A stretch of 64,000 nucleotides of DNA, taken from positions 2,662-66,661 of the forward strand of contig JAFGGQ010000096.1 of NCBI GenBank assembly GCA_016930435.1. The letters run 5' to 3'. The notes under the pieces were generated by a model. It did no database searches, was not told where the DNA came from, and saw only the letters and a list, made by a program, of their open reading frames with translations. The DNA comes from a bacterium (lineage in GTDB: Bacteria; UBP14; UBA6098; JAFGQG01). The position numbers and the translations under genes were made by a program. This document shows, in pieces, positions 1 through 60,542 of the stretch; within the stretch, counting starts at the first letter, position 1; every line of letters begins with the position of its first letter.

Positions 1-501
1 AAAGAGATTCATGGGGAAGCGCCTAACCATCTGGTTGAAGCCCTTCACTATCTCATTGTATCTCATGCGTTCTACGGCTATCCGGTTCTCGGTCCCGGCC
101 AGTTCATCCTGCAAACGGATAAAATTCTGGTTGGCTTTCAGTTCGGGGTAATTCTCAACTACCACCATTAAACGGCTGAGTGCTGCGGAAAGTTCCTGGT
201 TTGCCTCGATCTTCTCCGGGATGGTCGAAGCGCCGCCTACTTTCGATCTGGCTTCGGTTACCTGGATGAATACCTCCTTCTCGTGCTCGGCGTATCCCTT
301 TACCGTTTCCACGTAATTGGGGATCAGGTCAAAGCGCCGCTGAAGCTGATTCTCAACCTGTGCCCAGGCTCCCTTCACCTCTTCATCCGCGGTAACCAAA
401 CGGTTGTACATCCCAATACCAATTACTACTGCTATCAAACCAACGATCAGGACAATAGCCAGGATGATAAGAACGATCAACCCTGCTCCACCTCTTCTCA
501 T
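1..501 (-). CDS. lemA: LemA family protein (gene continues past window start; C-terminus missing)
   Basis: Reverse-strand translation from ATG at 501 gives MRRGGAGLIVLIILAIVLIVGLIAVVIGIGMYNRLVTADEEVKGAWAQVENQLQRRFDLIPNYVETVKGYAEHEKEVFIQVTEARSK..., typical LemA N-terminal TM helix plus conserved core; strong SD (AAGGAGG) upstream; not in ORF track because it runs off the window edge. Confidence 0.8.
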   Translation of the reverse strand, partial: MRRGGAGLIVLIILAIVLIVGLIAVVIGIGMYNRLVTADEEVKGAWAQVENQLQRRFDLIPNYVETVKGYAEHEKEVFIQVTEARSKVGGASTIPEKIEANQELSAALSRLMVVVENYPELKANQNFIRLQDELAGTENRIAVERMRYNEIVKGFNQMVRRFPMNLF

Positions 502-523
502 ATCTAACCTCCTTATTATTACA

Positions 524-1258
524 TTAATTATTGATCTTGTCAATCATATCTACCAGGTCTGCGATCTGGTGGATGTAAGTCTCCACCATACCCCGGGCTT
601 GTTCAGTTGATGGTTTAAGCTCACCTCTCTTAACGGCAAGTAAATTTTTAAAAAACTCGGTTTCGATCTGCGAGAACTCATCACAGGTTCGGGTAATCAC
701 CTCGTTATCATTAGAGGGAATCCCTATCCCCCGGTAAAAGAGCAATCCTCGGAATATTGAAGTGAAGGTACTCACCGAGTCCGAAATAAGCTGGAGTAAG
801 CGGCGCTTTTTTCCTCTGGTCTCCAGATAGTATTGGCGGAGCTTAAGCAATTTGCCCTTCAGTTCCCGTTCCAGTTGTAAACGCAGATCATTTTTATTAA
901 TGGTAATATCCTTCAGGATGTCCTCTCCGTAAATTAGCTGGTAATGGGCCTTGATGTTCAGAAACTCCAGTGGGAAGCTGTCCAGCGAATGGAGCACGTA
1001 AAATTTAGTAAAGAACAGGGGCATCGCCACCTTTTTTTTTCGCCAATTTTTAATGGTATCTATGATGGTATCCAGTTTTTCCATTCCTTTTCCGGTCAGG
1101 ACGATCATGAAGTTAATGTCCGATTTCCCCTTGATGTATTGTCCCCGGGCGGCGCTGCCGTAAAGGACAATAGAGACCAGTTCATCCCCGAATGCTTTTT
1201 TTAAATCCAGGGTAAATTCTTCCTTGATATGTTCTACTTTATCCGGTATTTTTGCCAT
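524..1258 (-). CDS. nucleotidyltransferase-fold domain protein (Pol-beta/MNT/KNTase-like)
   Basis: N-terminal ...VLYGSAARGQYIKGKSDINFMIV... = GS-x(9-12)-D-x-(D/N) minimal nucleotidyltransferase signature, followed by a helical C-terminal half; second acidic residue of DxD is Asn here. Confidence 0.55.
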   Translation of the reverse strand: MAKIPDKVEHIKEEFTLDLKKAFGDELVSIVLYGSAARGQYIKGKSDINFMIVLTGKGMEKLDTIIDTIKNWRKKKVAMPLFFTKFYVLHSLDSFPLEFLNIKAHYQLIYGEDILKDITINKNDLRLQLERELKGKLLKLRQYYLETRGKKRRLLQLISDSVSTFTSIFRGLLFYRGIGIPSNDNEVITRTCDEFSQIETEFFKNLLAVKRGELKPSTEQARGMVETYIHQIADLVDMIDKINN

Positions 1259-1295
1259 TATTTCACCTCTTTTATAGGGTAGTTATGTTTTCGGT

Positions 1296-2057
1296 TTAGT
1301 AGCTTCTGAATGACCCTCCGCCGCCGGACATTCCTCCGCCGAACCCGCCGAACCCGCCGGAGAACCCACCGCTGCTGAATCCGCCTCGTCCCCCGCTGCT
1401 CATTACTCCCAGGAGCAGCCATGGTAAAGCCCTTCCCCTGGTAACTATCATGATGATAATAAAAAGGATAATTATTGGGCAGCATCGCAGCCAGCTTCCC
1501 GGCGATGGATCGGAGCGGACCTCCGAAGGGGTCAGAGGCTCCGCCGCCTGACCGGTCAGTGTTACGCCCTGGTCCTCAGCAATCACCGTGGCCAGTGCCC
1601 TCATTCCCTGGTACAAACCATTGCCATAATCATCGTTTCGAAGGTAAGGGATCATATAGCGATCCTGGATTTCTCCGGTCAGCCCGTCTGGAAGTATCCC
1701 CTCCAGTCCATAGCCCACCTCGATACCGACACGCCGTGCTTGGATCACATCCAGGATCAATACGCCGTTGTCCTTGCCCTTTTCGCCGATGCCCCAGTGG
1801 GAAAAAAGCCGGTTGACATATTCCTCGGGAACATATCCGTCCACATTATCAATAGTCACCACGGCGATCTCGGCACCGGTTTTGCTCTTTAATTCGTTAG
1901 CCAGCGCCTCTATCCGTGTCTCGAAATCGGCCGGGATGACATTGGCAAAATCATTTACATAGCCCCGGTATTGTGGAAAATCCTGGCCCCTTAGCGTACT
2001 CAGCCAAATTAAAGCAAAGCAGAGTGTTATATACGGTAATAAATATCCTTTTTTCAC
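1296..2057 (-). CDS. TPM domain (YgcG-like) protein with C-terminal TM and Gly-rich tail
   Basis: Signal peptide, TPM-phosphatase-like core (YVNDFANVI...AEIAVVTI...GVLILD...GYGLEGILPD), TM helix, then GGFSSGGFSGGFGGFGGG tail; classic LemA-TPM neighbourhood. Confidence 0.8.
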   Translation of the reverse strand: MKKGYLLPYITLCFALIWLSTLRGQDFPQYRGYVNDFANVIPADFETRIEALANELKSKTGAEIAVVTIDNVDGYVPEEYVNRLFSHWGIGEKGKDNGVLILDVIQARRVGIEVGYGLEGILPDGLTGEIQDRYMIPYLRNDDYGNGLYQGMRALATVIAEDQGVTLTGQAAEPLTPSEVRSDPSPGSWLRCCPIIILFIIIMIVTRGRALPWLLLGVMSSGGRGGFSSGGFSGGFGGFGGGMSGGGGSFRSY

Positions 2058-6621: not shown

Positions 6622-7106
6622 CTTTGACCTCCTGGTTAAAGGCTGAACTGTTTTGCGCACTATAATTATACAAAAAACATCCTTTATGTCAATTTATGTA
6701 TTGAAATATCTGCGGGAATAAATAATCAGGGGACAGAAAAGGATGAATTTATAAAACGGGAACGTTTTTTTCAAGTCGGAAGCGATATCCGGATATTCAA
6801 CAATCAAACCGCCCGGTTTGTTATTGGTAAACCCCATTAACCACTGGTGATAATACAATACCAGGCTGTTGCCCCGCATAGGTTTATCTATATATACGTT
6901 ATGGAGGGAGGGGTCCCAAAAAACTGGCCTGTTGGGGGGCACAATATTCCCTGAAAGCTTTTAAATAACGCATAGCGGCAGAACTATCTACACTAATGGT
7001 CATCCGGTCCGGGGGGCTGCCGCACCCCTGGCCACTATTCCCTTGACTTCAGGGAAAAATATAATAAAATGTACTTTTTAAATATTTTACGATTAAAAGG
7101 AATCTA

Positions 7107-14116: not shown

Positions 14117-14130
14117 GGGCGTTTCTATTA

Positions 14131-14450
14131 CCTGTATTCAGCGTTAACTGTAAAAAAACAATGGCGAAACCTCCTAAGTTTGTTGTAAACCAAGCTTTAG
14201 AAAAACATCATCAAACAAGGAGGTTTCACCTAAATTGTGAAAATAAAATGTGAAATACCAGATAAAAAAGTAATCGAAATTTTATTAGTGAAAAGATAAA
14301 GAAGAATTTAGGCCAAAGTATTTATTATTATTATTCTAATTCAAATAGGTTAACTAATTATTTTTAGATACTTACTTCGTATTATTCTGTCTTTCTAAAG
14401 TCTCTGAGTATCAGGTTTACCTCGCCGCCTTACCGAAATTCTATGAATTA
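14131..14450 (+). repeat. noncoding dispersed element Rep-A, copy 1 (core 14131-14311; weaker similarity continues to about 14450)
   Basis: About 80% identical to 32138-32490; contains long hairpin with arms GAAACCTCCT (14165-14174) and AGGAGGTTTC (14217-14226), i.e. an anti-SD-like and an SD-like arm; the spurious ORF 13951..14253 lies on top of it. Confidence 0.6.
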
Positions 14451-22256: not shown

Positions 22257-23051
22257 TTAGAAGGTCATTTTAAAATAAACCAATCCGGTCAGCAAGGATC
22301 CGGTAAGTAAGGTGAGTATCCAGTCGCCGGTATGGTATTTGAGGGGTTTATAATAAGTACGGGGATGGTCGGGGGTGTATGCTCTGACCTCCAGGGCAAG
22401 TGACAGGGTTTCTGCTCTTCTGAAGGATTGAGCAAAGAGGGGGATAATCAGGGGGAGCAATGCTTTGATGCGCTTGAGCAAGCCCCCTCCAAACCGTGCT
22501 CCCCGGGCCAACTGGGCCTTGCGGGTGTTCTCAATCTCATCTATCATGGTAGGGATGAACCGGAGGGCGATCATCATCATCAGGGTAAAATTGCGGACCG
22601 GTATCCCCCTTCTGTTAAGGGGCTCCAGAAACCTTTCCAGGGCATTTGTAAATTCGATGGGTTGCGTAGTCCAGGTTAAAAGCGCTCCGGAAAATACCAG
22701 TAGAAACAGACGCAGAGAAAACAGCAACCCGTTCCAGGCACCCTCCAGTGAAACGGAGAACCAGTGCCATTGATAACCCCCTTCTGCCGGTGTAAATATG
22801 AGATGCACTAAAAAGGTTATATAGAAGAACAACCGGAAGGTACGAACCAGGGTCAAAAGATTCACAAGATGCAGTTTCGCCATGATCATCAATATGAAAA
22901 GGACCAATAAACCCGCCAGATGGGTTTCAATACTGTTGAAGAGAATAAAAAAGCTGACTAATACCAGAAAAAACAGGAATTTGCTCCGGGGATCCAGGCG
23001 GTGAATTACGGAATCACGGGGAAGATATTGTCCCAAAGTAAGGTTTCTCAT
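22257..23051 (-). CDS. ecfT: energy-coupling factor transporter transmembrane component EcfT (CbiQ family)
   Basis: Polytopic; conserved ...ARGARFGGG...RIKALLPLIIPLFAQSFRRAETLSLALEVRAY... EcfT C-terminal motif; classic ecfT-truA adjacency. Confidence 0.8.
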   Translation of the reverse strand: MRNLTLGQYLPRDSVIHRLDPRSKFLFFLVLVSFFILFNSIETHLAGLLVLFILMIMAKLHLVNLLTLVRTFRLFFYITFLVHLIFTPAEGGYQWHWFSVSLEGAWNGLLFSLRLFLLVFSGALLTWTTQPIEFTNALERFLEPLNRRGIPVRNFTLMMMIALRFIPTMIDEIENTRKAQLARGARFGGGLLKRIKALLPLIIPLFAQSFRRAETLSLALEVRAYTPDHPRTYYKPLKYHTGDWILTLLTGSLLTGLVYFKMTF

Positions 23052-23298
23052 AGAATTTATCTTAAAAAGGATAAAGTATTCATACTGTTCTTAAGAAACA
23101 AGGAATTTTAAATATATCTTAACTCAACAAATTGCCAACATAATTTTACTGAAATTTAGGTCTGTCAATTTATTATATTTTGGAATCAATACTTTCTTTT
23201 TTAAAAAACTTAGAAAAGTGATATTATGGTTTGTTTTTGTTTATACTCAAATTCCTTCTTTTCTTGACATGCCGGCGGTTTATATTTAATTATTTTTT

Positions 23299-24039
23299 AT
23301 GACCACTTTCGATGAAAGGCGCACACTGGAGGAGCAATTATCCGTTGCCTTGGAGCGTCATCTTTTCAAGAATGACGGTAATCCGTTTTACATTTGCCCG
23401 ACGGGTATTGAATTCGTGCTGGAACATTCTGAAGGGAGGGAGTTTCTCAGTCGATTACGGGGGCATACAGATGCGACCGATCCCACAGGTACCTCATTTA
23501 TTTACTTTCCGGACCGCATTGTGATAGATACGGTAGGCAGGAGGGCTTTCTGGTTGGAGCTGAAGGTAATGAAGCGCAGCCCCCGGGTGAGCACAAAGAT
23601 GATCCTTAAGCGGTCTCATCCCCGGTATGACAATATTCATCCGGAGAAGTGGGTGAAACTTCAGCCCTTCCTGATCCCGGAGTACTGGGGAGTAATTGAG
23701 CGCCGCGCTCTGGATAATTACCGGCGGCTTTGTCGCTCTATTGGTGACCGCTCACTGATGCTGATCGTTTACGCCGACTTTCATCCCCACAGACTGATCG
23801 CTATCTGGGAGCAGGATATGGTCAAGCTTTATGAGCAGGACCGTGAGCTGTTCCCGGACAGTAACCGGGAAAACGTTCAAAGTACCCGTGGTTCGGGAAC
23901 CCCCTGGGCGAATGTATCGCTTGGCAATTTTCTGCCCCTGGAAAGTTTTTTGGTCAAAAATACCGCCAACAAGGAGTACTGGAAAAGAAATCAACCGGGT
24001 GAAAAGATGCGTATGATTTTGGGAGAATTGGGGGGATAG
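23299..24039 (+). CDS. hypothetical protein, possible PD-(D/E)xK nuclease fold
   Basis: ...FIYFPDRIVIDTVGRRAFWLELKVMK... contains hPD...(14 aa)...ELK arrangement; no other recognisable domain. Confidence 0.4.
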   Translation: MTTFDERRTLEEQLSVALERHLFKNDGNPFYICPTGIEFVLEHSEGREFLSRLRGHTDATDPTGTSFIYFPDRIVIDTVGRRAFWLELKVMKRSPRVSTKMILKRSHPRYDNIHPEKWVKLQPFLIPEYWGVIERRALDNYRRLCRSIGDRSLMLIVYADFHPHRLIAIWEQDMVKLYEQDRELFPDSNRENVQSTRGSGTPWANVSLGNFLPLESFLVKNTANKEYWKRNQPGEKMRMILGELGG

Positions 24040-24067
24040 ACCGGACCCCCGCAAGGGAGCCCGGCCA

Positions 24068-24179
24068 CCGTTTAAACCGGTTTAATTTAGCCGAAATTAA
24101 CTATAATGCCTGAAATATCGAAAAACAGGTTCCTCAAATATATAACTCATATTCAACATTATCAACTGCATTTTACGGG
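24068..24179 (+). mobile_element. MITE-like dispersed repeat, family B copy 1
   Basis: Shares CCGTTTAAT...CTATAATGCCTGAAATATCGAAAAACAGG...TTCATCAAATATATAACTCATATTCAACATTATCAACTGCATTTTACGGG with 29884-29986 and 49318-49499; imperfect terminal inverted repeats CCCGTTTAAT / ATTTTACGGG. Confidence 0.55.
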
Positions 24180-24186
24180 TAAAAAG

Positions 24187-26109
24187 CTACTTCAATAGGA
24201 CCATCTTCCGGTTGAGCGTCCCGCCGGCTGACTCCAGCCTGTAAAAATAAATACCTCCTGTAACATCGTTCCCGGATTGATCCAGGCCATCCCAGAGTAT
24301 CTCGCCATTATAATTTTTGAGGTCGAACATACGCACGGTCTGACCATCGATTGCGTAAATGGTCAGCTTGCCGTCCTGAAACCGGGGATGTTCATAGATG
24401 ATCCGTGTAGCGGCATTGAATGGGTTGGGAACATTATAGAGCAGGCTATAATCAGAGGGTAATGCTGCCCTTTCTCCAATAGTCTCCATGCTCAGGTCGC
24501 ATTCAGCTGCCTGCCAGATGAGATAATTGTTATCATCCTGGATAAATGCTACGATGATTATTTCATCCTCATCCCAGGCGGATTCAATCGTAAAGCTAAA
24601 CTCATATTCCCGGGATTCGTCCCGAACCAGGTCCAGCTCCGTTCCCTCGAAATCGGTTACCACGTCGCGAACTGTATGATATAAATGGGTTTGGGGAACA
24701 TCGCCAGGATTCCAGCTATAGGCTATCTCACTCTCGATCACTGCCAACCGGAGAAACTGGTTATTCAGGGCCGGCGGATCATTGTCCATCGTGACGTTAA
24801 CCGTAAAATGGACGTCTCTGCCCTCGATGGAATTCACCGAAAGGTTGAGCATATAAGGACTGCTTAGTTCCTGTATATCCCGGAAAGCCCCTAAGTACTG
24901 GGGATAGCCGTAATCGTATGATTCGGGGTATCCGCCGCTGAACTCTATTATCCCGTTTACCCATACATCGGGGTAGCCGGAGACATCGTAGTAGTCTGCA
25001 GCCGGCACGGCATCAATCAGGTAATATGGATCTGAACCGAAAGACAGGGTGGTATGGTAAACAATTATTATCACTGAATCCTCCAGGTCTTCATAAAGCA
25101 TGTGCAGTCCTTCGGATGCCCGTGGGCAATAATAGCATCCCACCGCAGTAAATTCCTGGAAGATGGGTTGCATGTAATTGGTATATGCATACAGAGAGAC
25201 CTGCTGGGTATCGTTACCCGCAAATTCATCTGTTGTCAGATCCGTGAATGCTTTAATCTCGTATGCATCACCGGGATTGGCCATGAAACTGGCGAATTCA
25301 ACACTTCTTGAAGCCCCCGGGGCTAATGCGGAAATAGTCTGTGTATCAGCCATCACAACCGTTCCGAACCTTTCCACCAGGCAGATCACATCGAATGTCT
25401 CGGTATTTATCCCGGGATTCATGAATACCGCCTCCGGGGCGAGGTATTCACCAGGGCTGATAAAAATATCATCGTATATGATCTCATTGCAGGATACATC
25501 ATGATCCAATGGAACCATGATGGCAACGTCGTCGATATACCAAACATCGCCGTCGGCGCCTTCATATTTAAAAGCCACATAGATGGTGCCTGAATGCCCG
25601 GTGATAGTTATAGGAGGAACCGGGTTCCATTCGTAATCAGAGAAGGTATCGATCTCGGCAATCTCTACAAAATCACCGTCTCCGGGGTTCCCGGAACCGT
25701 CAGACACCCACACTCCATGATAACGGTAATCAAATGTATAGAGAGTGTACTGGAAAAAGTTCAGAATAGGATTTATTCCCAACGGAACGGTCAGTGGAGG
25801 TGAAACCAACCATCCTTCAAGATTGGAGATATTCCAATTGTGAACATAGGAATAATCGCCCGTATTCGCTTCGTAGTTAGTAGGTTCCCATTCCACGGCA
25901 GTAGCGCCAAGGACATAAACACTCCAGTCATCACGCTCAGATGCAGTCTCAAAACTGGTGATATAAGGCAGGGTTTCATCGAGAGGAGCAAAACTACGAT
26001 CTGGTTCAGGATGGTTAACCAGGCTGCTTGAACCCACCGTAAGCTTATCGGCCCATAACAAGCCGACCAGGAATATTACAATTACCATCACAAAAATCAG
26101 CTTTTTCAT
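24187..26109 (-). CDS. secreted hypothetical protein with T9SS C-terminal sorting domain
   Basis: Start chosen at MKKLIFVMV (AAGGAG 8 nt upstream) rather than ORF-track 26154; C-terminal ...YNVPNPFNAATRIIYE...GGIYFYRL... CTD. Confidence 0.6.
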   Translation of the reverse strand: MKKLIFVMVIVIFLVGLLWADKLTVGSSSLVNHPEPDRSFAPLDETLPYITSFETASERDDWSVYVLGATAVEWEPTNYEANTGDYSYVHNWNISNLEGWLVSPPLTVPLGINPILNFFQYTLYTFDYRYHGVWVSDGSGNPGDGDFVEIAEIDTFSDYEWNPVPPITITGHSGTIYVAFKYEGADGDVWYIDDVAIMVPLDHDVSCNEIIYDDIFISPGEYLAPEAVFMNPGINTETFDVICLVERFGTVVMADTQTISALAPGASRSVEFASFMANPGDAYEIKAFTDLTTDEFAGNDTQQVSLYAYTNYMQPIFQEFTAVGCYYCPRASEGLHMLYEDLEDSVIIIVYHTTLSFGSDPYYLIDAVPAADYYDVSGYPDVWVNGIIEFSGGYPESYDYGYPQYLGAFRDIQELSSPYMLNLSVNSIEGRDVHFTVNVTMDNDPPALNNQFLRLAVIESEIAYSWNPGDVPQTHLYHTVRDVVTDFEGTELDLVRDESREYEFSFTIESAWDEDEIIIVAFIQDDNNYLIWQAAECDLSMETIGERAALPSDYSLLYNVPNPFNAATRIIYEHPRFQDGKLTIYAIDGQTVRMFDLKNYNGEILWDGLDQSGNDVTGGIYFYRLESAGGTLNRKMVLLK

Positions 26110-26170
26110 ACAAAACTCCTTCTTTAAATGTTGTTGCCCCTCTCTGAACACCAATGGGCATTATAACTCA

Positions 26171-26653
26171 TCAAAATTTCATTATAAACTCAGCATCGTA
26201 GGCAACGATCTGGACATTCCCATCCCGGTTAGCCAGGACAAATTTCTCGGAATGGGAACCATTGACCTTTTGGCCTGTTCTATATTCAATGACCTCGCTC
26301 TTGGCAATATGAACGTTCGCTTGCTCCCCTTGAATCTCTATTTTCTGCTCCTCGATAGTGTAATGATAAGAATCAATAGCCATGAAAATCATGGACATTT
26401 GCTGGTTGAACTGGCCCTTGGTGAATTTCATCTGCTGCTCACCCATCTTAAGATTAACCTGTATTCCATCTGCCATGGCGCCGGTAATGAAACCGGCATT
26501 CTTTTGTGCATAAGCCTCATTGAGGTCTTTGATAAAACGATGTATCCCCCTTTCGGTAAAGGGGTAACTGGTCTTATCACCGGAACAGGTTAGTGTTAAT
26601 AGCCCCAATCCAAGCAACAGCAATAGCGATTTGGTATAGTACTTTCTTAACAT
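26171..26653 (-). CDS. hypothetical lipoprotein (NTF2/SnoaL-like fold suspected)
   Basis: Lipobox LLTLTCSG; 160 aa. Confidence 0.45.
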   Translation of the reverse strand: MLRKYYTKSLLLLLGLGLLTLTCSGDKTSYPFTERGIHRFIKDLNEAYAQKNAGFITGAMADGIQVNLKMGEQQMKFTKGQFNQQMSMIFMAIDSYHYTIEEQKIEIQGEQANVHIAKSEVIEYRTGQKVNGSHSEKFVLANRDGNVQIVAYDAEFIMKF

Positions 26654-26974
26654 ACTTATCTCGCTTTGTTTGTTATTTTTATTAAAATTGATGCCCTCTT
26701 AAAAAGCCGTAATTTCATAGACCTAATTTATTGGAGTAAGTTATTTTGAATTTAATAGTTGGCAAGTTAAATTTTCTTCTTTTCCTTGGCACCATTATTT
26801 TGCAATCGATGTTCGTATTTTTGGTACTTTTACAACAGTGATTGACAGCTTGAATCCCTATTTAGCTCCGATATCAGCAGACTCCCATCCGGGGAATATA
26901 ATTTTATTGTCAAATTCCAAGTTGTTTCTATATTATCGGGATAATAAACAACCTTAATCTAAAAGTGAAATAAA

Positions 26975-28879
26975 ATGCAACTTATCAAATTAGCTTTATT
27001 GACTATAGTGCTACTATCGACCTTTTGTTTTTCTTATACCCAGTACACCGAAATGGTTCCGATGAGGGACGGTGTTCATCTGGCTACCGAGGTCTATCTC
27101 CCCAGTTATATGCCCGAACCCTTTCCGGTGATCCTGGAACGAACCCCTTATAACCGTCACATTGACACCCTTCAGGTAGGGATTATTACCGATTACTACC
27201 GTTATATTTATGTTGTGCAGAATCTGAGGGGGCGCTACGAGTCTGAGGGGGAGCCTCAAATTTTTCTATCGGATGCCTGGGGCGACCTTAAGGATGGTTA
27301 CGATTGCCTGGAGTGGGTGGAGGCTCAGGAGTGGTGTGATGGGAATATTGGAATGTTTGGGGCTTCTGCTCCTGGGATGACCCAGTATATGGCCGCCGGC
27401 GCGCTACATCCTGCCCTGAAGTGCATGGCTCCGCTTTTTGCAGGGCCGTCTATCTATCATTATGTAGCCTATAACGCCGGCTGTTTCCGCAAAGCCCTGG
27501 TGGAAACCTGGCTCTCATCGGTCTCCGAGACCGGACTCATAGATACCGTCGCTGCCTATTATAATTACGGACCCTTTTGGGAGTTTACCAATCTCGCCGA
27601 ACGCTACGACTCGGTTAATGTACCCGCATTCCATGCCACCGGATGGTACGACATGTACACGGACGGGCAGCTGGAGGTCTTTACCGAACTGCAGAGCCGG
27701 TGGGGCAACCAGAAGATCCTTATCACCCCTTATGGCCATTCTAATATTGGTAACCGGCATCAGGGAGACCTCCTGTTCCCCCTCAACGCGGAACGGGACG
27801 AGCTCGAACTTGCCCTGGTAGCAGTGCGCTGGTATGATTATTGGCTTCAAGGCGATTCCACCGAGATTATGGACGAGGACCCGGTAATCTATTACCTTAC
27901 CGGCGACTGTGATACCGACGACACAACCCAATGGAATAAATGGCTCACTGCAGTATCCTGGCCGGTTCCCGGGATGGAATACGTTACCTATTACCTCCTT
28001 GATGAGGGATCCCTGGATACCCTGATGCCCTTCAGCGATGGAGCCGATACTATTTTCTATGACCCGGCTAACCCCTGCCCGACTATCGGCGGTAGAGAAT
28101 ATATCGGCCTGACCAGCGGTTATGGCCCCAAAGACCAACAGCCAATCGAGGGCAGACCGGACGTCTTGATCTATACTACACCAACGCTTCTTAACCCCGT
28201 TAAGATGATTGGTAAGATTACCATGTCCCTTTATGCCTCCTCTAACTGCCTTGATACCGATTTTACGGTCAGAATTACCGATGTTTACCCTGATGGCCGC
28301 TCAATTTTAATGACCGATAACATAGTCAAGGCCAGGCACCGCAACGGTCTGGATATAGAAGAGCCGCTTACACCGGGTGAAATATATGCTTTCGATATTG
28401 ACGTCTGGAGCCTTGCCCACGTTTTTAATGCCGGACACCGGATCCGGGTGATTATCTCATCCTCTAATTACCCCCGCTTCGAGAAAAATCCCAACACAGG
28501 CGCGCCACCTGTCAGGAATGACCCGAATATGCTGATAGCTATCAATTCCATCTACCGCTCCCAACTATACCCATCCCGGATCCGTTTCCCTATAATATCC
28601 ACCGATACATCTCTGGTGGTCGATTACCGAAATCTGCCCTCAAACCTGAAAGTAAAATGCTTCCCGAACCCATTTAATTCCTCTTTGATGATCGATGCCC
28701 CGGCGCTGGGGAAAATAAGGATTTACGATTTAAAGGGTAAATTGATCGAAGAAATTAATAGCGGATTATCCGGGGTGAAATTATGGAAACCAAAGGACCA
28801 TGTGCCTACAGGCTTATACCTGATAAATGTCCTGACTGAAAGGGGAATTGGAAATCATAAAGTCCTCTATTTAAAATAA
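26975..28879 (+). CDS. CocE/NonD family hydrolase (S15 Xaa-Pro dipeptidyl-peptidase-like) with T9SS C-terminal domain
   Basis: ...MVPMRDGVHLATEVYLP...ERTPYNR...; C-terminal ...CFPNPFNSSLMIDAP...GLYLINV... CTD. Confidence 0.8.
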   Translation: MQLIKLALLTIVLLSTFCFSYTQYTEMVPMRDGVHLATEVYLPSYMPEPFPVILERTPYNRHIDTLQVGIITDYYRYIYVVQNLRGRYESEGEPQIFLSDAWGDLKDGYDCLEWVEAQEWCDGNIGMFGASAPGMTQYMAAGALHPALKCMAPLFAGPSIYHYVAYNAGCFRKALVETWLSSVSETGLIDTVAAYYNYGPFWEFTNLAERYDSVNVPAFHATGWYDMYTDGQLEVFTELQSRWGNQKILITPYGHSNIGNRHQGDLLFPLNAERDELELALVAVRWYDYWLQGDSTEIMDEDPVIYYLTGDCDTDDTTQWNKWLTAVSWPVPGMEYVTYYLLDEGSLDTLMPFSDGADTIFYDPANPCPTIGGREYIGLTSGYGPKDQQPIEGRPDVLIYTTPTLLNPVKMIGKITMSLYASSNCLDTDFTVRITDVYPDGRSILMTDNIVKARHRNGLDIEEPLTPGEIYAFDIDVWSLAHVFNAGHRIRVIISSSNYPRFEKNPNTGAPPVRNDPNMLIAINSIYRSQLYPSRIRFPIISTDTSLVVDYRNLPSNLKVKCFPNPFNSSLMIDAPALGKIRIYDLKGKLIEEINSGLSGVKLWKPKDHVPTGLYLINVLTERGIGNHKVLYLK

Positions 28880-29078
28880 TCCTTCGAATTTTCTAAGCTA
28901 AAATGATGTGACAACCAAATTGCTATACATTATATTAACTATTCTACTGACATTATATTAAAAAAAGTCGTACAGGTATTCCATAGACCATCTGTTTAAG
29001 CCTATTGCACCTTATTTATTCTTGACAACAATCTGATACCCTATAAATTACTAATTAACCTTTTGAAAAGGAGTTGCA

Positions 29079-29879
29079 ATGAATAAGATAGGTTTTTATC
29101 TTCTGTCTGTTTTACTGATTGCGTCCATTTTGGGCTGCGCAAAGGAGGAAGATCCCAATCCCCCCTCTTTGCCCGGAACCGAGAGCTTCACCATAAATCT
29201 GACCACCTTCACCGAGGCTGCTCTATCCAAGCATTCCCCGCAATTATTTTGCGATGATTTTGATACTGCGGCAGTCCTGGTAGCGGTTTGGGGGACCATG
29301 ACCAATCTGGCATTCGCCCTTCCCCGCCTGGCTTTCGTGGTTGCTGTCACCCAGGACCCTGAGTACCTGGGCGACCTGACATGGACCTGGACCTTCGGCG
29401 CGGAATCCAATAATATCCAGTTACGCGGACAGGCGATCGACGAAGAGGACAGCGTGAACTGGGAAATGTATATAACCAATGCCGAACTGGATCATTTTCT
29501 CTGGTATGACGGGCGTTGTGATTACCATGCTACCGGAGGCTGGTGGCAGTTTTATAAGGATGACCTTCCCGCGGATTCAAACCACTTCATCAGGCTCAGC
29601 TGGCAGAAAAACGAAGGTGATACAACCGCTAACCTGCTGATAACAAACAATAACCTGTTCAGCGCCGAATATGGTGACAGCCTCAGTTATGAGATTGATG
29701 GAAATATGGGAACAGTCTGGCTGCGGGACGTTGACGGCGGCCGGCCCGGACGCTGGAATATCACCTGGGATATCAATCAGCATTTTGGCCGTATAGACTA
29801 TCCCGAAGGCGCATTCGGATGCTGGGATAATGACCTGGCATGCATAGAGTGTGATAGCCTGGATTGGCCTACCTATTGA
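29079..29879 (+). CDS. hypothetical lipoprotein
   Basis: Lipobox ILGCAKEE; SD AAAGGAG upstream; no recognisable domain. Confidence 0.45.
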   Translation: MNKIGFYLLSVLLIASILGCAKEEDPNPPSLPGTESFTINLTTFTEAALSKHSPQLFCDDFDTAAVLVAVWGTMTNLAFALPRLAFVVAVTQDPEYLGDLTWTWTFGAESNNIQLRGQAIDEEDSVNWEMYITNAELDHFLWYDGRCDYHATGGWWQFYKDDLPADSNHFIRLSWQKNEGDTTANLLITNNNLFSAEYGDSLSYEIDGNMGTVWLRDVDGGRPGRWNITWDINQHFGRIDYPEGAFGCWDNDLACIECDSLDWPTY

Positions 29880-29883
29880 TAAT

Positions 29884-29986
29884 CCCGTTTAATTCAGTTG
29901 AAGTTTACTATAATGCCTGAAATATCGAAAAATAGGTTCATCAAATATTTAACTTATATTCAACAATATTAACTGCATTTTACGGG
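29884..29986 (+). mobile_element. MITE-like dispersed repeat, family B copy 2
   Basis: 103 bp, see copy 1. Confidence 0.55.
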
Positions 29987-30024
29987 ATAATTACCCAAAC
30001 AACCCCTAAAAGCAAGGGAACATT

Positions 30025-42709: not shown

Positions 42710-43063
42710 ATGAAACCCCGCTCAACTGAAGAACACAAAAAAGTTCGAAGGGAATTTCGAAAAAATCCAACACCTGCAGAAGAAGAACTCTGGAAGCACC
42801 TACGTAAAAAACAATTAAAAGGGTATAAGTTCAGGAGGCAACATCCAGTAAAGGGTAAGTTCATCCTCGATTTTTACTGTCCTATAAAAAAACTTGCAAT
42901 TGGACTTGATGGTCCGATACATAGATTTACAAAGAAAGAAGATAAGGAACGGCAAGAACTAATCGAGTCGATTGGTATCAAAGTAGTAAGGTTTAAAAAC
43001 CGGGATGTCTTTGATAGGGTGGAATGGATTTTGGAGAAGATTGTGAATGCTTTAGAGGGGTGA
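42710..43063 (+). CDS. DUF559 endonuclease-domain protein (Vsr-like fold)
   Basis: ...GYKFRRQHPVKGKFILDFYCP...KLAIGLDGPIH... DUF559 pattern. Confidence 0.7.
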   Translation: MKPRSTEEHKKVRREFRKNPTPAEEELWKHLRKKQLKGYKFRRQHPVKGKFILDFYCPIKKLAIGLDGPIHRFTKKEDKERQELIESIGIKVVRFKNRDVFDRVEWILEKIVNALEG

Positions 43064-43494
43064 AGTGTGTTTTACCCCCCCCCTTCGTAACGTATTACTG
43101 CTTCAGTCCTTACACCTTGACCCCCACTACCCCGTGAGATAAATAAAATATAATTGGTGTGATCTGTTTACTATTTTGTTTCCAGATTATCTTTATCAAC
43201 TTTTCGAGAACAAATCTATCTCACAGGGCAAGTTAGGGGGGGAGGGAAGGAGATTGATGTTAGAATTGTTTTTGGGGTTTCTTTCTGTTTACCCCCCTTC
43301 CGTCTCCGATATTCATCGGAGCCACCTTCCCCCACGGATTGTGGGAGGGGAAAGAAGTTGGGATATTTATTACATTAAGTATATTGATTTTATTTACTGG
43401 GAATCCTTGTTTCCCCCAATGCGTGGGGGAAAATGCCCGAAGGGCAAAAGGGGGGAGAAAAAACAAATAAACACACAAAATACTACATTTTTTC
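43064..43494. repeat. C-tract/G-tract-rich, hairpin-dense noncoding region
   Basis: Runs C9 (43075-43083), G7, C6, C5, G5; 31-bp imperfect inverted repeat 43111-43141 / 43220-43250; perfect hairpins CTCCGAT-attc-ATCGGAG and TTTCCCCCA-atgcg-TGGGGGAAA; GCAAAAGGGGGGAG (43463) is a direct repeat of GCAAAAGGGGGAG (42569). Confidence 0.5.
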
Positions 43495-43524
43495 TTGATC
43501 TTGTCCCCAAAATCTTATATTATT
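43495..43524 (+). promoter_or_regulatory. candidate promoter of the DUF2281-mazF operon (TTGATC-N15-TATATT)
   Basis: Hexamers read from sequence; GGAGG at 43538-43542, ATG at 43550. Confidence 0.3.
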
Positions 43525-43549
43525 ATTTTTACAGCATGGAGGTAACATA

Positions 43550-43777
43550 ATGAAAATAAAAGAGAAAATTAGTGAAAACATCGATAAACTACCTGAAAAT
43601 TTCCAATCAGAAGTATTAGATTTTGTTGAATACCTTTTAAGCAAATCCACGGGCAATATGATCTTGGAACAAAATAATGATTGGTCGAACTTCTCTCTTG
43701 CTTCCGCAATGCGTGGGATGGAAGATGAAAAAACTCCTGATTATAGTGAAGAAGACATCAAGGTGAAGTTCACATGA
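43550..43777 (+). CDS. DUF2281-like antitoxin
   Basis: MKIKEKISENIDKLPENFQSEVLDFVEYLLSK... ; 4-nt ATGA overlap with downstream toxin gene. Confidence 0.55.
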   Translation: MKIKEKISENIDKLPENFQSEVLDFVEYLLSKSTGNMILEQNNDWSNFSLASAMRGMEDEKTPDYSEEDIKVKFT

Positions 43778-44118
43778 AAAAACCCGGTCAGGTTATACTA
43801 TTCGAATTTCCACAAACCAATCTCAAACAAGGGAATCTTCGCCCCGCTTTATTAGTAAGCAAATTACCGGGGCAATATGATGACTGGTTAATGTGTATGA
43901 TTTCGACACAAACCCAGCATTATATTAAGGACTTCGATGAATTAATACAATTTGATGATCCTGATTATAAGCTATCGGGCTTGAAAGATCCAAGTATAAT
44001 CAGGGTCGAACGGCTTGCAGTCGTTAATGCTGATATTCTTCTGGGCGCAATTGGGGAAATTAGCGCAGAAAGACTTCGGCGTGTCAAAACACATCTTTCC
44101 GAATGGATCATGCAATAA
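43774..44118 (+). CDS. type II toxin, PemK/MazF family
   Basis: ...GQVILFEFPQTNLKQGNLRPALLVSKL...CMISTQTQ... MazF/PemK core. Confidence 0.8.
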   Translation: MKKPGQVILFEFPQTNLKQGNLRPALLVSKLPGQYDDWLMCMISTQTQHYIKDFDELIQFDDPDYKLSGLKDPSIIRVERLAVVNADILLGAIGEISAERLRRVKTHLSEWIMQ

Positions 44119-44317
44119 CAAAAATATATACGATATTTTGTGCTGTGGTTTTTATTACTATTTCAGTAATTGTTCTTTTACCCTCCCCCTCAGACAACTT
44201 CCCACCTTATTACTTGAGAAATCTTATATAAATCGAGTAGATTTTACTTATTTTCCAATTCACTAAGGCGTTGCAATCAATATTTGAGATTGATTTTATA
44301 TTTTCAATTTGATTCTA

Positions 44318-49095: not shown

Positions 49096-49317
49096 TTAAT
49101 AAGACGAATCTAAGTTATACTCTAAAATTTGTCAAGAAGAAATACTAATTGCAGATCGAAAACACCAAAATAAACATTCATTGTGATTCTATCCAGTCAC
49201 TCCATCCTCCGTAGGGCGGTACAAACTTTCAGCACATGAAAACTCTCTCTGCACACCGGGTTCAATCATGAGGAGTAGGGTTTGTCTGGCTTTTTCCCCG
49301 ATAATCCATCGTTCAAC

Positions 49318-49499
49318 CCGTTTAATGCAGTTGCAATTATCTATAATGCCTGAAATATCGAAAAACAGGATATTAGAATATAAACTTCAGAATAAAATTT
49401 GCATTTTTTTATACAATTCGTAATACTCATAAATACATGTTCATCAAATATATAACTCATATTCAACATTATCAACTGCATTTTACGGGTTCAATATCA
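49318..49499 (+). mobile_element. MITE-like dispersed repeat, family B copy 3 (carries an extra internal insertion of about 70 bp)
   Basis: Same termini and core as copies 1-2; internal extra segment 49376-49446. Confidence 0.55.
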
Positions 49500-49507
49500 A
49501 GTGCTCT

Positions 49508-51604
49508 TTATCCTACTTCCTTTAAACTAAGGCTGACCCTTCCCCGTTCCCTATCAATCTCAATCACTTTTACCCTTAAGGCCTCTCCAACCGTCACGAC
49601 TTCATGGGGGTCTTTAATAAAACGGTTTGCCAACTGTGAGATATGGATCAATCCCTCGCTCTTTAATCCAATATCAACAAATGCCCCAAATTGAGTGATA
49701 TTCCTCACTATCCCCTCTACAATATCACCCTCCCGGAGATCCTCCACTTTGTAGCTGCTTTGCAGCTTTAAATTACCTTCAAACTGGCGGATTTCCCTTC
49801 CGGCATTGCGAAAATTTTGCAGGATATCCCGAACCACTTCCGTGGTGATCCCATGATAAAGCCCCTCCATTATCTCCCTGTGATTATTAAAAATATTCTC
49901 CTCATTCTGATGATCGATAATGAACCTGGCGACTTCATACTGCTCGGGATGAATAGCCGTGTGGTCGAAAAAGTTATCGCTTTCGGGCACCCGAAGAAAT
50001 CCCACCGATTGCTCGTATGCCTTGGGAGTGAGTACCGCCAGAAGGTCTTCCCTTGAATTATATGGCCTGTTCTCGAATATCTTACTGGCCGAACGGCGGT
50101 TCAGACCCGAAACATACGCCAACAGATAAACTGAAGCAGTATTTAAATTAATTCCCACCAGATTGACCACATCCTCGACCACCTCGCTGAGCTTATTCTC
50201 CAGCTCCTTCTGGTTCATATCATGCTGGTACATCCCCACCCCAATACTGATTACCGGCACCTTCACCAATTCGGACAAGCAATCAATATACCTCCGTCCA
50301 ATGGATATTGTACCCCGATCAGTGGCATCCAACTCCGGGAATTCTTCCTGACCAGCCTCTGAAACGGAATATACCGAAGCTCCCGATTCATTCACAAGTA
50401 CCAGTTTGTGGTCAGTATTGGCGCTTAACAGATCAAATACCTCTCCGGAACCTGTTCCGTTACCGATCACAATAACCTCGCTCTTGAAATCTGCTATTAG
50501 ATTCTCCATCAAATCCAAAGCCCCGGTTTGGTTATCCAGGAAGAACTTTGTGAAGTGAAGGGGCTGACCACCCTTATCCAGAACACAAACCTTGCAACCG
50601 GTGCGGTACCCGGGATCAATCGCCAGGACGGATTCCCCGTAATGTGGCTTAAGCATCAAAAGCTCTTTCAGATTCCGCTGAAAAGCATTTACTGCATCAA
50701 CCTGCGCCCTTTCGGTAAGGGCATTTCTCATTTCCCGTTCAATAGCATAATATAACTTTAAATAGCCCTCCCTTATACATTTACCCAGCCGCTCTGAATT
50801 TTCCTCCCTGAATACCAAACGATCCCTAAAATGACTGTAAAAATCCTCGTCATGCTCCAATTTAACCTTCAGAATGCCCAGGTTCTCACCACGGTTAAGG
50901 GCAAGGATCTGGTAGCTTTTGAGTTTTCCGAAAGAAGCATTGAAATCCCCATATATCTTAAATTTGTGAGCCTCTTTCTGCTGCTTATCATCAAATTTGT
51001 CAGGGTTTTTATAGGCCGATGAAATAACACCATGCCTGAGATAATTCTGGCGAACCTGGTCCTTGAGATCGGGATTATCAGCAATATCCTGACTGACAAT
51101 GTCCATTCCCCCCTGGAGTATTTCCTCCTCCGTGAAATTTTCCAGCAAGCTTGCCGGGATATTCAAGGACTCCTGATTCCGGATCTGCTGAGCGACCACT
51201 TCAAAACCCTTTTCCCGGGCTATATCGGCTTTAGTCTTTCTTTTACGCCGATAAGGAGCATAAAGGTCATCTACCTCGGTCAGGGTAGTTGCCATCTCCA
51301 ATCTCAGCCGAAGCTCCTCGGTTAGCTTGCCCTGCTCCTCGATATTCTTCAAAGCGCTGATCTGAGCCGTGTATAAATTTATCAGATGCTTCTTCTGCTC
51401 AATTATATCCCGGATCTGATTCTCGTCCAGGTTGCCCGTTCGCTCCTTCCGGTAACGGGCGATGAAATGAACGGTATTGTCCTCACCAGCGAGGGCGAGA
51501 ACGCTCTCCACCTGCCATTCTCCAAGGCCCAATTTTGCGGCGATCAGCAGATCGTATTGGGGTTCATTCATAAATTTAACCGTAATCCTTTCTCTCCAAA
51601 CCAT
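49508..51604 (-). CDS. tex: Tex-like RNA-binding transcription accessory protein (YqgF/HhH/S1 domains)
   Basis: ...EDNTVHFIARYRKERTGNLDENQIR...; C-terminal S1 domain ...DLREGDIVEGIVRNITQFGAFVDIG...; true start possibly Met12 (51571). Confidence 0.9.
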   Translation of the reverse strand: MVWRERITVKFMNEPQYDLLIAAKLGLGEWQVESVLALAGEDNTVHFIARYRKERTGNLDENQIRDIIEQKKHLINLYTAQISALKNIEEQGKLTEELRLRLEMATTLTEVDDLYAPYRRKRKTKADIAREKGFEVVAQQIRNQESLNIPASLLENFTEEEILQGGMDIVSQDIADNPDLKDQVRQNYLRHGVISSAYKNPDKFDDKQQKEAHKFKIYGDFNASFGKLKSYQILALNRGENLGILKVKLEHDEDFYSHFRDRLVFREENSERLGKCIREGYLKLYYAIEREMRNALTERAQVDAVNAFQRNLKELLMLKPHYGESVLAIDPGYRTGCKVCVLDKGGQPLHFTKFFLDNQTGALDLMENLIADFKSEVIVIGNGTGSGEVFDLLSANTDHKLVLVNESGASVYSVSEAGQEEFPELDATDRGTISIGRRYIDCLSELVKVPVISIGVGMYQHDMNQKELENKLSEVVEDVVNLVGINLNTASVYLLAYVSGLNRRSASKIFENRPYNSREDLLAVLTPKAYEQSVGFLRVPESDNFFDHTAIHPEQYEVARFIIDHQNEENIFNNHREIMEGLYHGITTEVVRDILQNFRNAGREIRQFEGNLKLQSSYKVEDLREGDIVEGIVRNITQFGAFVDIGLKSEGLIHISQLANRFIKDPHEVVTVGEALRVKVIEIDRERGRVSLSLKEVG

Positions 51605-57851: not shown

Positions 57852-60542
57852 TTAATCCGTCAGGTCTATTTCATTTATGTCATCCTGAATATCGATTCCC
57901 TCGTTACCAGGGGTGAGAAGATCAATCTCCTCGGCTTTGAAATTATCTTCCAGGTCGATAGAAAAGGCCTCATTCTCGGTTTTAATGTAATAGAAATTGG
58001 TTATTGCAGGGGCATGTATTTCCCTCCGTTCATCTCCCACGAAGAAGACCGTGCTGGTGCCTGCATTGAAGTAGCTGTTGTTGGTCCAGTTACCGTGAAC
58101 GAACAGTTTTCCACTGCCGCCGTTGAGTGTCCCATCGATGACCACATTATGACATACGCATGAACCGTCGGATGTATTGATGGTTGGGAAGCGGCCGTAG
58201 GCGGGAACTGCCGGAATGGAGACGTCTGTACTGGCGGTAGGCAGGAGGCATCCTCCCCAGTTCTGTGGATTACTCCAGTTGTTATCGGCATAACCGGTCC
58301 AGATGCCCTCGCCATAGTTATTGTAAACGGTGACGGTAACCGAGCCGCAGCCGGTGGACAAGCATCCAGCACCTGTTTGGGCTTTTGCATAATAGGTAGT
58401 AGTTGCAGCAGGGGATACGGGGAGAGGACTTCCTGAACCGATGTAGGTTCCGCCGCAGGATCCGGTGTACCAATAGATAGTAGCGCCGCTGACGGTTGCG
58501 GTTAAATTGGTTGAGGAGCCATAGCAAACCGATGTTGGCGTTGCTGATGGGGATGGATTATTAGGGATCTCATTAACGGTAACGGTAACACTTCCGCAGC
58601 CGGGCGACCACATGTCATAGCCGGCGTGATAGGAGCGGATATAGTAAGTACCCGAAGCATTTGCGGTATAGTTCACTCCGGAGCCCAGGTCAGTGCGGGT
58701 ACCGCAGGTAGTGCCCTGCCAGTACCAGGTCTCGCCGGAGGGAACCGAGCCCACCCTGGTAAGGGTTTGCGGCCCACAGGGATTGGCAGTCGTGGTAGGA
58801 TTGGGAGGGTTATTTATAACGATGGCTTCCGTGATGCTGAGGTTAAAATCAAAACAGTCATAGGTCAAGAATAATGCCCACATGGGGTCACAATCTATCA
58901 TTATATAATAGGTTCCCACTGAAGCAAGCAGAGTAATACCATATAGACCATGAGCATCATCACCACTTTCGGTAGAGGTATCTATACACACTGCTCCTAG
59001 TGGACAGTCGTAGGAGATAGCAATAGAACTCCCTTCTACCAGAAAGGGAAAGAAGAGAGTATTTAGAGGCTCTAATTCAATATCAACCACCACATCTGAG
59101 GTTACACTCAGTCTATAGATGATATCCTGTCCCTGATCATAATAGTTTAAGAAAACGCCTTCTCCCTCAATATGCAGGCAAGTGTTTTCGTCATCACCGT
59201 AATCATTAGTCATTTCGCAGGTTGTCTGGTAGCTATCATAATAGGGCAATTCACCGGGGATAGATACCGGAATGGGATTGGAGCAGGTAGCGCCGGTAAT
59301 TCCCTCGGTGATAGTTAAATTAAAGTCAGGGATGCAATCAGCGGATTGCTCGTCGCTATCTACCATAATATAATATGTTCCGGCACCCAGGCGGACATTA
59401 TAAAGTCCATAAACTCCGGGCAGAAGATTGGTCGCATAATCAATACAATCTCCGGAGGGGGGGCATTCTTCATCCAATGCAAAACCGGTGCCCGGGGTGC
59501 CATCAGAGAATATTCCGCCAGGATCCAGTTCAATATTTACTACCACCGATTCCGTAACAGTGATCCGGTAAAAGAGGTCCTCCCCGCTATCGTAGTCAAA
59601 GAGCACTCCGTCCAGGCAGCTTTCATCGCCGTGGTTCAACCTCCCGCAGGTGAATTGATTTGAGCTGGTGTAGGGCAGATCAGCGGGAAGAGTAACGTTG
59701 ATAGGTTCGCTGCAGTCGCGGGGGGAGGTGATGATCAGGTCAAAATTGGGGATACCGCCCGTAGCAATAGCCGGATTGTAATCTACCATAATATAATAAG
59801 TTCCGGCGCTGAGGGAGATATCGGTGACGCTGTGGCTTCCGGCGCCGGGATTCGTACTCATGGCCAGGCAGGAGCCGTCGGGAGGGCAGGCATTATCCAG
59901 GCAGAATCCGGTTCCGGCGGTACCATGCGGATCAAGGGTTATATCGATTACCATCGGACGATCCACATTAAGCTGATAGAATACGTCTTCCCCTTCGTCA
60001 TAAGCCTCCAGGCAGGAGTTGTTCCAGTCGTTCACCCTTCCGGTAGTCCACTGACTATAGTCGTTATAAGCCATATCTTCGGGGAGTTCCACGACTATCG
60101 GAGTGGAGCAGTTATTTCCCACATTACAATCCACCCATGTTACTGTGAGGTCCCAGCCCCAGTATGTGTACCCAACCTCCTCGATCATTACCCGCCAGTT
60201 TTCAGCAGCCGCTCCGCAGGTAGAGGTCGGGTCATAATCGACAGGATTGTAAGGTCCGCATGTTTCATCCCACCCACCGGAACGGTCTGGGCGACAGTCA
60301 TAAACCGAGCAATCAGTGCGTGTGGGGAAATATACATAAAGATCATAATCGTCATCTTCGGTATCATCAATATCCAGATCGAAGAGAACATAACGGGCGC
60401 CGGCCGGGATGCTAATTACCGTACAGGGATAATCACCATCCCCGGAAGTGGTCCATTCGCCACACCATAACGCGGACATCATAAGAAGCAAAACACTACC
60501 CGATAATACTAAATATCTTATATCTTTCATACTCATTTTCAC
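57852..60542 (-). CDS. large secreted protein with at least 4 tandem PPC (pre-peptidase C-terminal)-like domains followed by Ig-like modules
   Basis: Repeated approximately 150-aa units each with C..PI.V.LP..LPY...DLY..., G.GF.LD..CPP.G.C, GTYYIMVD; overlaps upstream gene by 4 nt. Confidence 0.55.
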   Translation of the reverse strand: MKMSMKDIRYLVLSGSVLLLMMSALWCGEWTTSGDGDYPCTVISIPAGARYVLFDLDIDDTEDDDYDLYVYFPTRTDCSVYDCRPDRSGGWDETCGPYNPVDYDPTSTCGAAAENWRVMIEEVGYTYWGWDLTVTWVDCNVGNNCSTPIVVELPEDMAYNDYSQWTTGRVNDWNNSCLEAYDEGEDVFYQLNVDRPMVIDITLDPHGTAGTGFCLDNACPPDGSCLAMSTNPGAGSHSVTDISLSAGTYYIMVDYNPAIATGGIPNFDLIITSPRDCSEPINVTLPADLPYTSSNQFTCGRLNHGDESCLDGVLFDYDSGEDLFYRITVTESVVVNIELDPGGIFSDGTPGTGFALDEECPPSGDCIDYATNLLPGVYGLYNVRLGAGTYYIMVDSDEQSADCIPDFNLTITEGITGATCSNPIPVSIPGELPYYDSYQTTCEMTNDYGDDENTCLHIEGEGVFLNYYDQGQDIIYRLSVTSDVVVDIELEPLNTLFFPFLVEGSSIAISYDCPLGAVCIDTSTESGDDAHGLYGITLLASVGTYYIMIDCDPMWALFLTYDCFDFNLSITEAIVINNPPNPTTTANPCGPQTLTRVGSVPSGETWYWQGTTCGTRTDLGSGVNYTANASGTYYIRSYHAGYDMWSPGCGSVTVTVNEIPNNPSPSATPTSVCYGSSTNLTATVSGATIYWYTGSCGGTYIGSGSPLPVSPAATTTYYAKAQTGAGCLSTGCGSVTVTVYNNYGEGIWTGYADNNWSNPQNWGGCLLPTASTDVSIPAVPAYGRFPTINTSDGSCVCHNVVIDGTLNGGSGKLFVHGNWTNNSYFNAGTSTVFFVGDERREIHAPAITNFYYIKTENEAFSIDLEDNFKAEEIDLLTPGNEGIDIQDDINEIDLTD

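Follow-up and report, generated by a model that had tools for sequence, protein, structure and literature searches.

Three intergenic sites in the chromosome of an uncultured bacterium carry closely similar copies of a short AT-rich sequence, which raises the question of whether the repeat is a transposable element, a family of RNA genes or a fixed module of gene ends. We addressed it within a 64-kb window of chromosomal DNA (the whole stretch analysed), in which groES/groEL, transaldolase, truA, a Tex-like gene and an AcrB-type efflux operon represent the housekeeping genes, and several proteins of which carry a type IX secretion sorting domain. MITEs are short, AT-rich, non-coding DNAs that retain no more of an insertion sequence than its two ends. 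We put the probability that the three-copy repeat is an ordinary MITE family at about three in four; the family is real and previously undescribed, yet it is no new kind of element.

The initial annotation had recognized three copies on the same strand, and alignment, nhmmer and self-BLAST agree that all three belong to the + strand. Two exact words, the left-half 25-mer CTATAATGCCTGAAATATCGAAAAA and a 30-mer taken from the right end, have exactly three matches apiece in the window, where shuffles expect 0; the same three loci, with no fourth copy, emerge from multiple alignment, a repeat finder, a profile search with nhmmer and a comparison of the window with itself by BLAST. The shared parts of the copies are 88-98% identical, with five private substitutions in the core of copy 2. 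At 27-32% GC, the copies differ from the genome (47% GC) and lie in intergenic DNA that is itself AT-rich (34% GC). The limits first proposed for copy 2 stand, while those of the other two are revised (Table 1): copy 1 begins not at 24068 but at 24077 with CCGGTTTAAT, the preceding CCGTTTAAA (24068-24076) being a terminus-like flank, and copy 3, earlier placed at 49318-49499, occupies 49317-49489.

Table 1. Coordinates in the window of the three copies, their ends, flanks and internal features, and of matching contigs from an independent assembly.
Feature	Position	Strand	Description
Copy 1, short form	24077..24179	+	103 nt, 32% GC; left inverted repeat degraded
Copy 2, short form	29884..29986	+	103 nt, 28% GC; inverted repeat 13/17
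Copy 3, long form	49317..49489	+	173 nt, 27% GC; inverted repeats best preserved, 15/17
Left terminal inverted repeat, reference form	49317..49333	+	CCCGTTTAATGCAGTTG
Right terminal inverted repeat	49473..49489	+	CAACTGCATTTTACGGG; copy 1 (24163-24179) identical; copy 2 (29970-29986) 1 base different
Extra internal segment, copy 3 only	49370..49439	+	70 nt, AT-rich, 19% GC
Left-arm local hairpin	49322..49340 (copy 3), 24082-24100 (copy 1), 29889-29907 (copy 2)	+	Element columns 6-24, pairing 6-12 with 17-24
Sigma-70-like promoter match	24137..24165 (copy 1), 49447-49475 (copy 3)	-	TTGATA-17-TATATT, 10/12, right half; consensus match only
Copy 1 left flanking 5-mer	24072..24076	.	TTAAA; imperfect target-site duplication, 4/5
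Copy 1 right flanking 5-mer	24180..24184	.	TAAAA; between element and stop codon (24187-24189) of minus-strand gene
Copy 2 left target-site duplication	29879..29883	.	ATAAT; base 1 is last base of TGA stop of gene 29079..29879
Copy 2 right target-site duplication	29987..29991	.	ATAAT
Copy 3 left target-site duplication	49312..49316	.	TTCAA
Copy 3 right target-site duplication	49490..49494	.	TTCAA
Logan contigs of SRR13394437	L020 = window 98-1337; L021 = 24152-32230; L022 = 22388-24122		100% identity

Exact-protein look-ups with three proteins of the window recovered only short Logan contigs of SRR13394437, which come from an independent short-read assembly, and those with four other proteins recovered nothing. 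The contigs are 100% identical to the window, and this sequencing run therefore contains the source organism. Two of its contigs end inside copy 1, at 24122 and 24152, which is the expected behaviour where a repeat splits the assembly graph. The contig that starts at 24152 also ends within a copy of a second repeat family (see below), and the run holds a second organism with a Tex-like protein 68% identical to that of the window (contig L019).

The terminal inverted repeat, earlier described as imperfect and about 10 bp long, is present on alignment, its length being 17 nt. Agreement between left and right ends is best in copy 3 (15/17 positions), followed by copy 2 (13/17) and copy 1 (10/17), the left repeat of which (CCGGTTTAATTTAGCCG) is degraded. 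A match of 15/17 at fixed positions has P ~1e-6 given the composition of the element, and the limits of homology between copies coincide exactly with the 17-nt inverted repeats. The right repeat is nearly invariant and the left one variable; a repeat-finding tool confirmed the arms of copy 2 and reported nothing for copies 1 and 3.

Immediately outside these ends, each copy is flanked by a 5-bp target-site duplication that differs from copy to copy, a mark that the initial annotation had proposed to look for. Within copies, 14 of 15 flanking positions match (P ~1.6e-7 on an AT-rich background), whereas pairing the left flank of one copy with the right flank of another gives matches at 2-4 of 5. 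The left pentamer of copies 2 and 3 is preceded by a G identical to the last base of the element, and the duplication of these two copies could be 6 bp if this G is counted. Removal of the element together with one repeat leaves plausible short spacers of 39, 37 and 234 nt, the reconstructed empty-site junctions being GCCCGGCCACCGTTTAAAAGCTACTTCAATAGG, GGCCTACCTATTGATAATTACCCAAACAACCCC and GATAATCCATCGTTCAATATCAAGTGCTCTTTA. Copy-specific 5-bp duplications of this kind are the expected mark of cut-and-stagger transposition. We also weighed the idea that the repeat is a non-mobile protein-binding or terminator-like module, or the relic of a recombination site, which was spread by segmental duplication or gene conversion and whose flanking 5-mers match through AT-richness. 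The placement of all three copies in the same orientation at gene ends would suit this idea, AT-rich flanks do raise the number of chance matches, and copies 1 and 3 have left flanks that are similar to one another and to the element terminus CCGTTTAA. However, the excess of matches within over between copies speaks against it, as do the sharp end of homology at the inverted repeats, the mutually unrelated flanking genes and the lack of a terminator-like stem with a T-run in the element, while three copies would share one orientation by chance in 1 case out of 4; we regard the idea as very unlikely.

With regard to position, the earlier placement of the copies between genes and near stop codons holds, at distances of 7, 4 and 18 nt, but not the further detail that two of them lie within 10 nt of a minus-strand stop. 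Copy 1 sits between convergent genes, and 7 nt separate its right end from the stop codon of gene 24187..26154 (minus strand). Copy 2 is placed between two co-directional + genes, originally separated by a spacer of ~37 nt; its left end follows the stop codon of gene 29079..29879 (plus strand) at 4 nt, with the next start codon 38 nt on. Copy 3 is antisense between two minus-strand genes, and the Tex-like gene 49508..51604 has its stop codon 18 nt, rather than <10, from the right end of this copy. The orientation relative to neighbouring genes thus varies among copies. The Tex-like protein is identical to NCBI MBN1755742.1, encoded on a contig of 78,435 bp, with its next relatives at 64-68% identity. 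The flanking genes were also considered as paralogues or as a hidden transposase; they are mutually unrelated and none is transposase-like.

A different reading takes the repeat for a small-RNA gene family or a cis-acting RNA module, with the 79-nt core as a transcript made from a + strand TATAAT or from a minus-strand TTGATA-17-TATATT. The first of these promoters had been suggested by the initial annotation, a suggestion that is not supported: a sigma-70 scan yields no -35 partner for the TATAAT, and there is no terminator on either strand. The minus-strand sigma-70-like match (10/12 in copies 1 and 3) is in keeping with transcription, but it is absent from copy 2, and ~0.7-1.8 such matches are expected per region by chance. 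Conservation of the core, the 79 nt of which differ at one real position when copies 1 and 3 are compared, and a 4-bp central stem (columns 33-36 / 50-53), the pairing of which is kept through a G-C to G-U change, likewise point toward an RNA, and MITE-borne promoters and small RNAs are documented in other systems (PMC10969869). Against this, the short copies fold no better than shuffled sequence (z of -0.1 to -1.9), the lower value of copy 3 (z = -3.2) is due to the terminal inverted repeat alone, and Rfam returns no family, whether searched with gathering thresholds or with E relaxed to 5. Hence, neither a promoter with a terminator, nor a stable conserved fold, nor a match to a described family was found, and an RNA family would leave the copy-specific flanking 5-bp duplications unexplained; we hold it to be very unlikely. 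A Bacteroidetes-type promoter on the minus strand (TTG-N20-TATATTTG) was rejected, as TAnnTTTG lies upstream of only one of 48 window genes.

Comparison of the copies with one another reveals an uneven pattern of change. The additional ~70 bp ascribed earlier to copy 3 are confirmed as exactly 70 nt, sitting between ...AAAAACAGG and TTCATCAAAT... No significant similarity was found between this block and the remainder of the element or any other part of the window, and we rejected its origin as an internal duplication, since 92/500 shuffles align at least as well with the right half. With three sequences, its insertion into copy 3 and its deletion in a short subfamily would be equally parsimonious. 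The short form is common to copies 1 and 2, as are T11 and A18, which hints at what may be two subfamilies. Between copies 1 and 3, substitutions number 7 in the 24 positions of the left arm and 2 in the 79 elsewhere (Fisher p = 4e-4), one of the latter two reflecting an insert cut one base out of register, for a true count of 1. This concentration in the left 24 nt is unlike the even spread predicted by neutral decay. The left arm can fold into a local hairpin in all three copies, with 90% of cells paired; columns 11-18 form a G-C pair in copy 3 and a compensatory T-A pair in copies 1 and 2, and most other variable positions fall in the hairpin loop or a bulge. The covariation is not significant with three sequences, 177/500 shuffles doing as well, and there is no compensation among the three copies in the long-range pairing of the two ends.

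Two further possibilities draw on this hairpin. First, the element might have been co-opted, in the sense that its near-invariant 79-nt core and a left-arm hairpin kept by compensation would serve as a regulatory or RNA module beside stop codons, or would be the substrate of a hairpin-recognizing enzyme that makes 5-bp duplications. The latter combination has, to our knowledge, not been described so far, and we likewise give co-option a very low probability. Second, the repeat could be a single-strand element of the REP or PATE type that depends on a hairpin, with a HUH (Y1) transposase that recognizes the left-arm hairpin instead of the inverted ends. The hairpin at columns 6-24, its G-C/T-A exchange at columns 11-18 and the loop or bulge position of most other variable sites would be compatible with such an enzyme, though this covariation is not significant, as stated above. 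REP/PATE-type elements insert beside a fixed tetra- or pentanucleotide and, as far as we know, make no target duplication, whereas the flanks here are duplicated and different between copies; moreover, the right end has no matching hairpin, and no HUH/RAYT or TnpA-Y1 gene was found in the window. We consider a single-strand element very unlikely. Other classes fail on anatomy, in that CRISPR, prophage or island boundary repeats and integron attC sites do not account for inverted ends and a duplication that each copy has of its own; for attC in particular, the ends GTTTAAT ... ATTTTAC run opposite to RYYYAAC (5′ inverse core) / GTTRRRY (3′ core) and do not fit the consensus, the copies are near-identical as against the diversity of attC sites, which lie at the 3′ ends of gene cassettes, and the neighbours are housekeeping genes, with no integrase in the window.

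We favour the MITE reading because the size, inverted ends, copy-specific duplications, AT-richness, intergenic position and size variation of the repeat match the hallmarks of prokaryotic MITEs, namely small size, inverted repeats, flanking direct repeats, AT-richness, intergenic location and size-variable copies (PMC10969869). The earlier view of the repeat as a non-autonomous miniature element is thereby upheld, with the aligned 17-nt termini and the copy-specific 5-bp duplications as its main support. At 103, 103 and 173 nt, the copies fall within the 50-500 bp of non-coding DNA that defines such elements, the inverted repeats stand at the very limits of homology, and the target-site duplications differ among the three copies seen in 64 kb. 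Stop codons occur in every reading frame of the element. Its sole ATG-led frame (MPEISKNRF...) was rejected as a peptide gene, as it is not conserved as a protein (five of six substitutions are non-synonymous, one of them a stop) and has no ribosome-binding site.

As comparison families we took Correia (Neisseria), RUP (Streptococcus pneumoniae), Chunjie (Geobacter), QMITE1/2 (Coxiella) and BrickBuilt (Porphyromonas) from a review (PMC10969869). In common with prokaryotic MITEs, the repeat is shorter than 500 bp, combines inverted repeats of a length between 4 and 30 bp with direct repeats at its flanks, is AT-rich, intergenic and non-coding, comes in copies of variable size and contains an internal sigma-70-like promoter match. 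Unlike the named families, it has a copy number that is low as seen here (3 in 64 kb) and an uncultured host with type IX secretion proteins and distant nearest sequenced relatives; nor did Rfam, plasmid, phage-like and literature word searches yield a match that would show sequence similarity to any of them. Duplications of ~5 bp are known from the IS701, ISH3 and IS1634 families (PMC2266710), and 5-bp duplications from Tn3-like transposons and from ISEcp1 of the IS1380 family, with Tn3-like insertions flanked by TTATC, ATATA and TTATA and bearing inverted repeats of 38 bp (PMC2887853). A 5-bp AT-rich target duplication is thus a feature that the repeat shares with Tn3-derived miniature elements (TIMEs) and the Tn3 family, but a Tn3-derived miniature element was rejected, since the ends here are 17 nt long and start with CCCG, as against the 38-bp repeats of Tn3. 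Tn3-family inverted repeats begin with GGGG, while the ends of the IS1380 family, which is common in Bacteroides, begin with CC. The IS1380 family would be a reasonable candidate for the source of the repeat. For IS1380 (ISEcp1), IS701, ISH3 and IS1634 alike, the likeness lies in the ~5-bp duplication; a transposase and a full-length element were not found in the searches.

These searches covered the window and several sequence collections. None of 48 window ORFs scanned is a transposase gene, nor did any longer element that shares the ends come to light. Exact-word scans used 17-21-mers, the genome and metagenome collections being scanned with the core word only: this word gave two matches in species-representative genomes and seven in JGI metagenomes, all by chance, with no similarity beyond the word, while the core word, right end and inverted repeat gave 0, 0 and 6 chance matches in viral contigs, with no partner ends. 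A sensitive blastn search of plasmids with copy 3 returned AT-rich noise only, at E of 0.2 or worse. The nhmmer profile of the element detected no copy in ~44 kb from the three nearest available relatives, which show 64-68% identity in the Tex-like protein and are not syntenic with the window. A 96-aa six-frame composite of the open frames of the element had no candidate among 5.8 billion protein clusters, and a literature search with ten-mers of the element ends recovered unrelated primers only.

Several other features of the window deserve a record in their own right. A second intergenic repeat family comprises 14127-14312, downstream of groEL, and 32133-32405, which has tRNA-Leu (32494-32579, minus strand) on one side and the start of a DUF2914 gene on the other; the two copies have the same orientation, are 79-97% identical in blocks and contain a long stem GCGAAACCTCCT ... 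AGGAGGTTTCAC (fold z ~ -2 to -2.5). They have no Rfam match and no clear inverted ends or target duplication. Within an extra piece of the 32-kb copy, a 54-nt segment (32292-32345) recurs, inverted and 92.6% identical, at 44207-44260, between the gene for a MazF-like toxin and the 3′ end of acrB. This segment looks like a case of small repeats nested within one another and parallels the 70-nt block of copy 3 in the MITE-like family. Just upstream of copy 1, 23299-24039 (+) encodes a 246-aa protein that belongs to no Pfam, NCBIfam or PHROGs family and has a D...ELK stretch (IVIDTVGRRAFWLELKV) reminiscent by eye of PD-(D/E)XK nucleases. Adjoining the efflux operon, 42710-44118 holds genes for a DUF559 (endonuclease-like) protein, an uncharacterized 124-aa protein and a PemK/MazF-type toxin, and is possibly a small defence or toxin-antitoxin islet. 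A possible gene fragment, the 82-aa ORF at 6694-6942 (minus strand), has a weak match to the C-terminal region of HsdR of type I restriction systems, which at E = 1e-4 falls far short of the cut-off for the family. Finally, the minus-strand gene 60539-62170, which has a weak LED-repeat match, contains at 61306-61702 a tandem repeat with a period of 18 nt (spacings 18, 36, 54, 72) that is coding and unrelated to the MITE-like family.

On the MITE reading, we infer mobilisation in trans by a DDE-type transposase encoded elsewhere in the genome, which would bind the 17-bp repeats 5′-CCCGTTTAATGCAGTTG ... CAACTGCATTTTACGGG-3′, excise or copy the element and insert it into a target opened by a 5-nt staggered cut. 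Subsequent repair would leave the 5-bp direct repeat at each copy, and the targets would be AT-rich pentamers in short spacers just past stop codons, where insertion would be harmless. Judged from its degraded left end and imperfect duplication, copy 1 is probably immobile now. Effects on neighbouring genes are possible, either via the minus-strand promoter-like site or via a long-range stem, which could form where the two upstream minus-strand genes have their 3′ untranslated regions.

No open question hinges on this repeat family. As MITEs, the three loci are to be annotated as mobile-element remnants and not as candidate RNA genes, and the copies would account for breaks of short-read assemblies at these points in this organism. 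They would also indicate that a 5-bp-duplicating transposase was recently active in a poorly sampled, uncultured lineage, and their 17-bp end sequence offers a ready probe for the partner element, which would be bounded by CCCGTWWAATGCAGTTG in inverted orientation.
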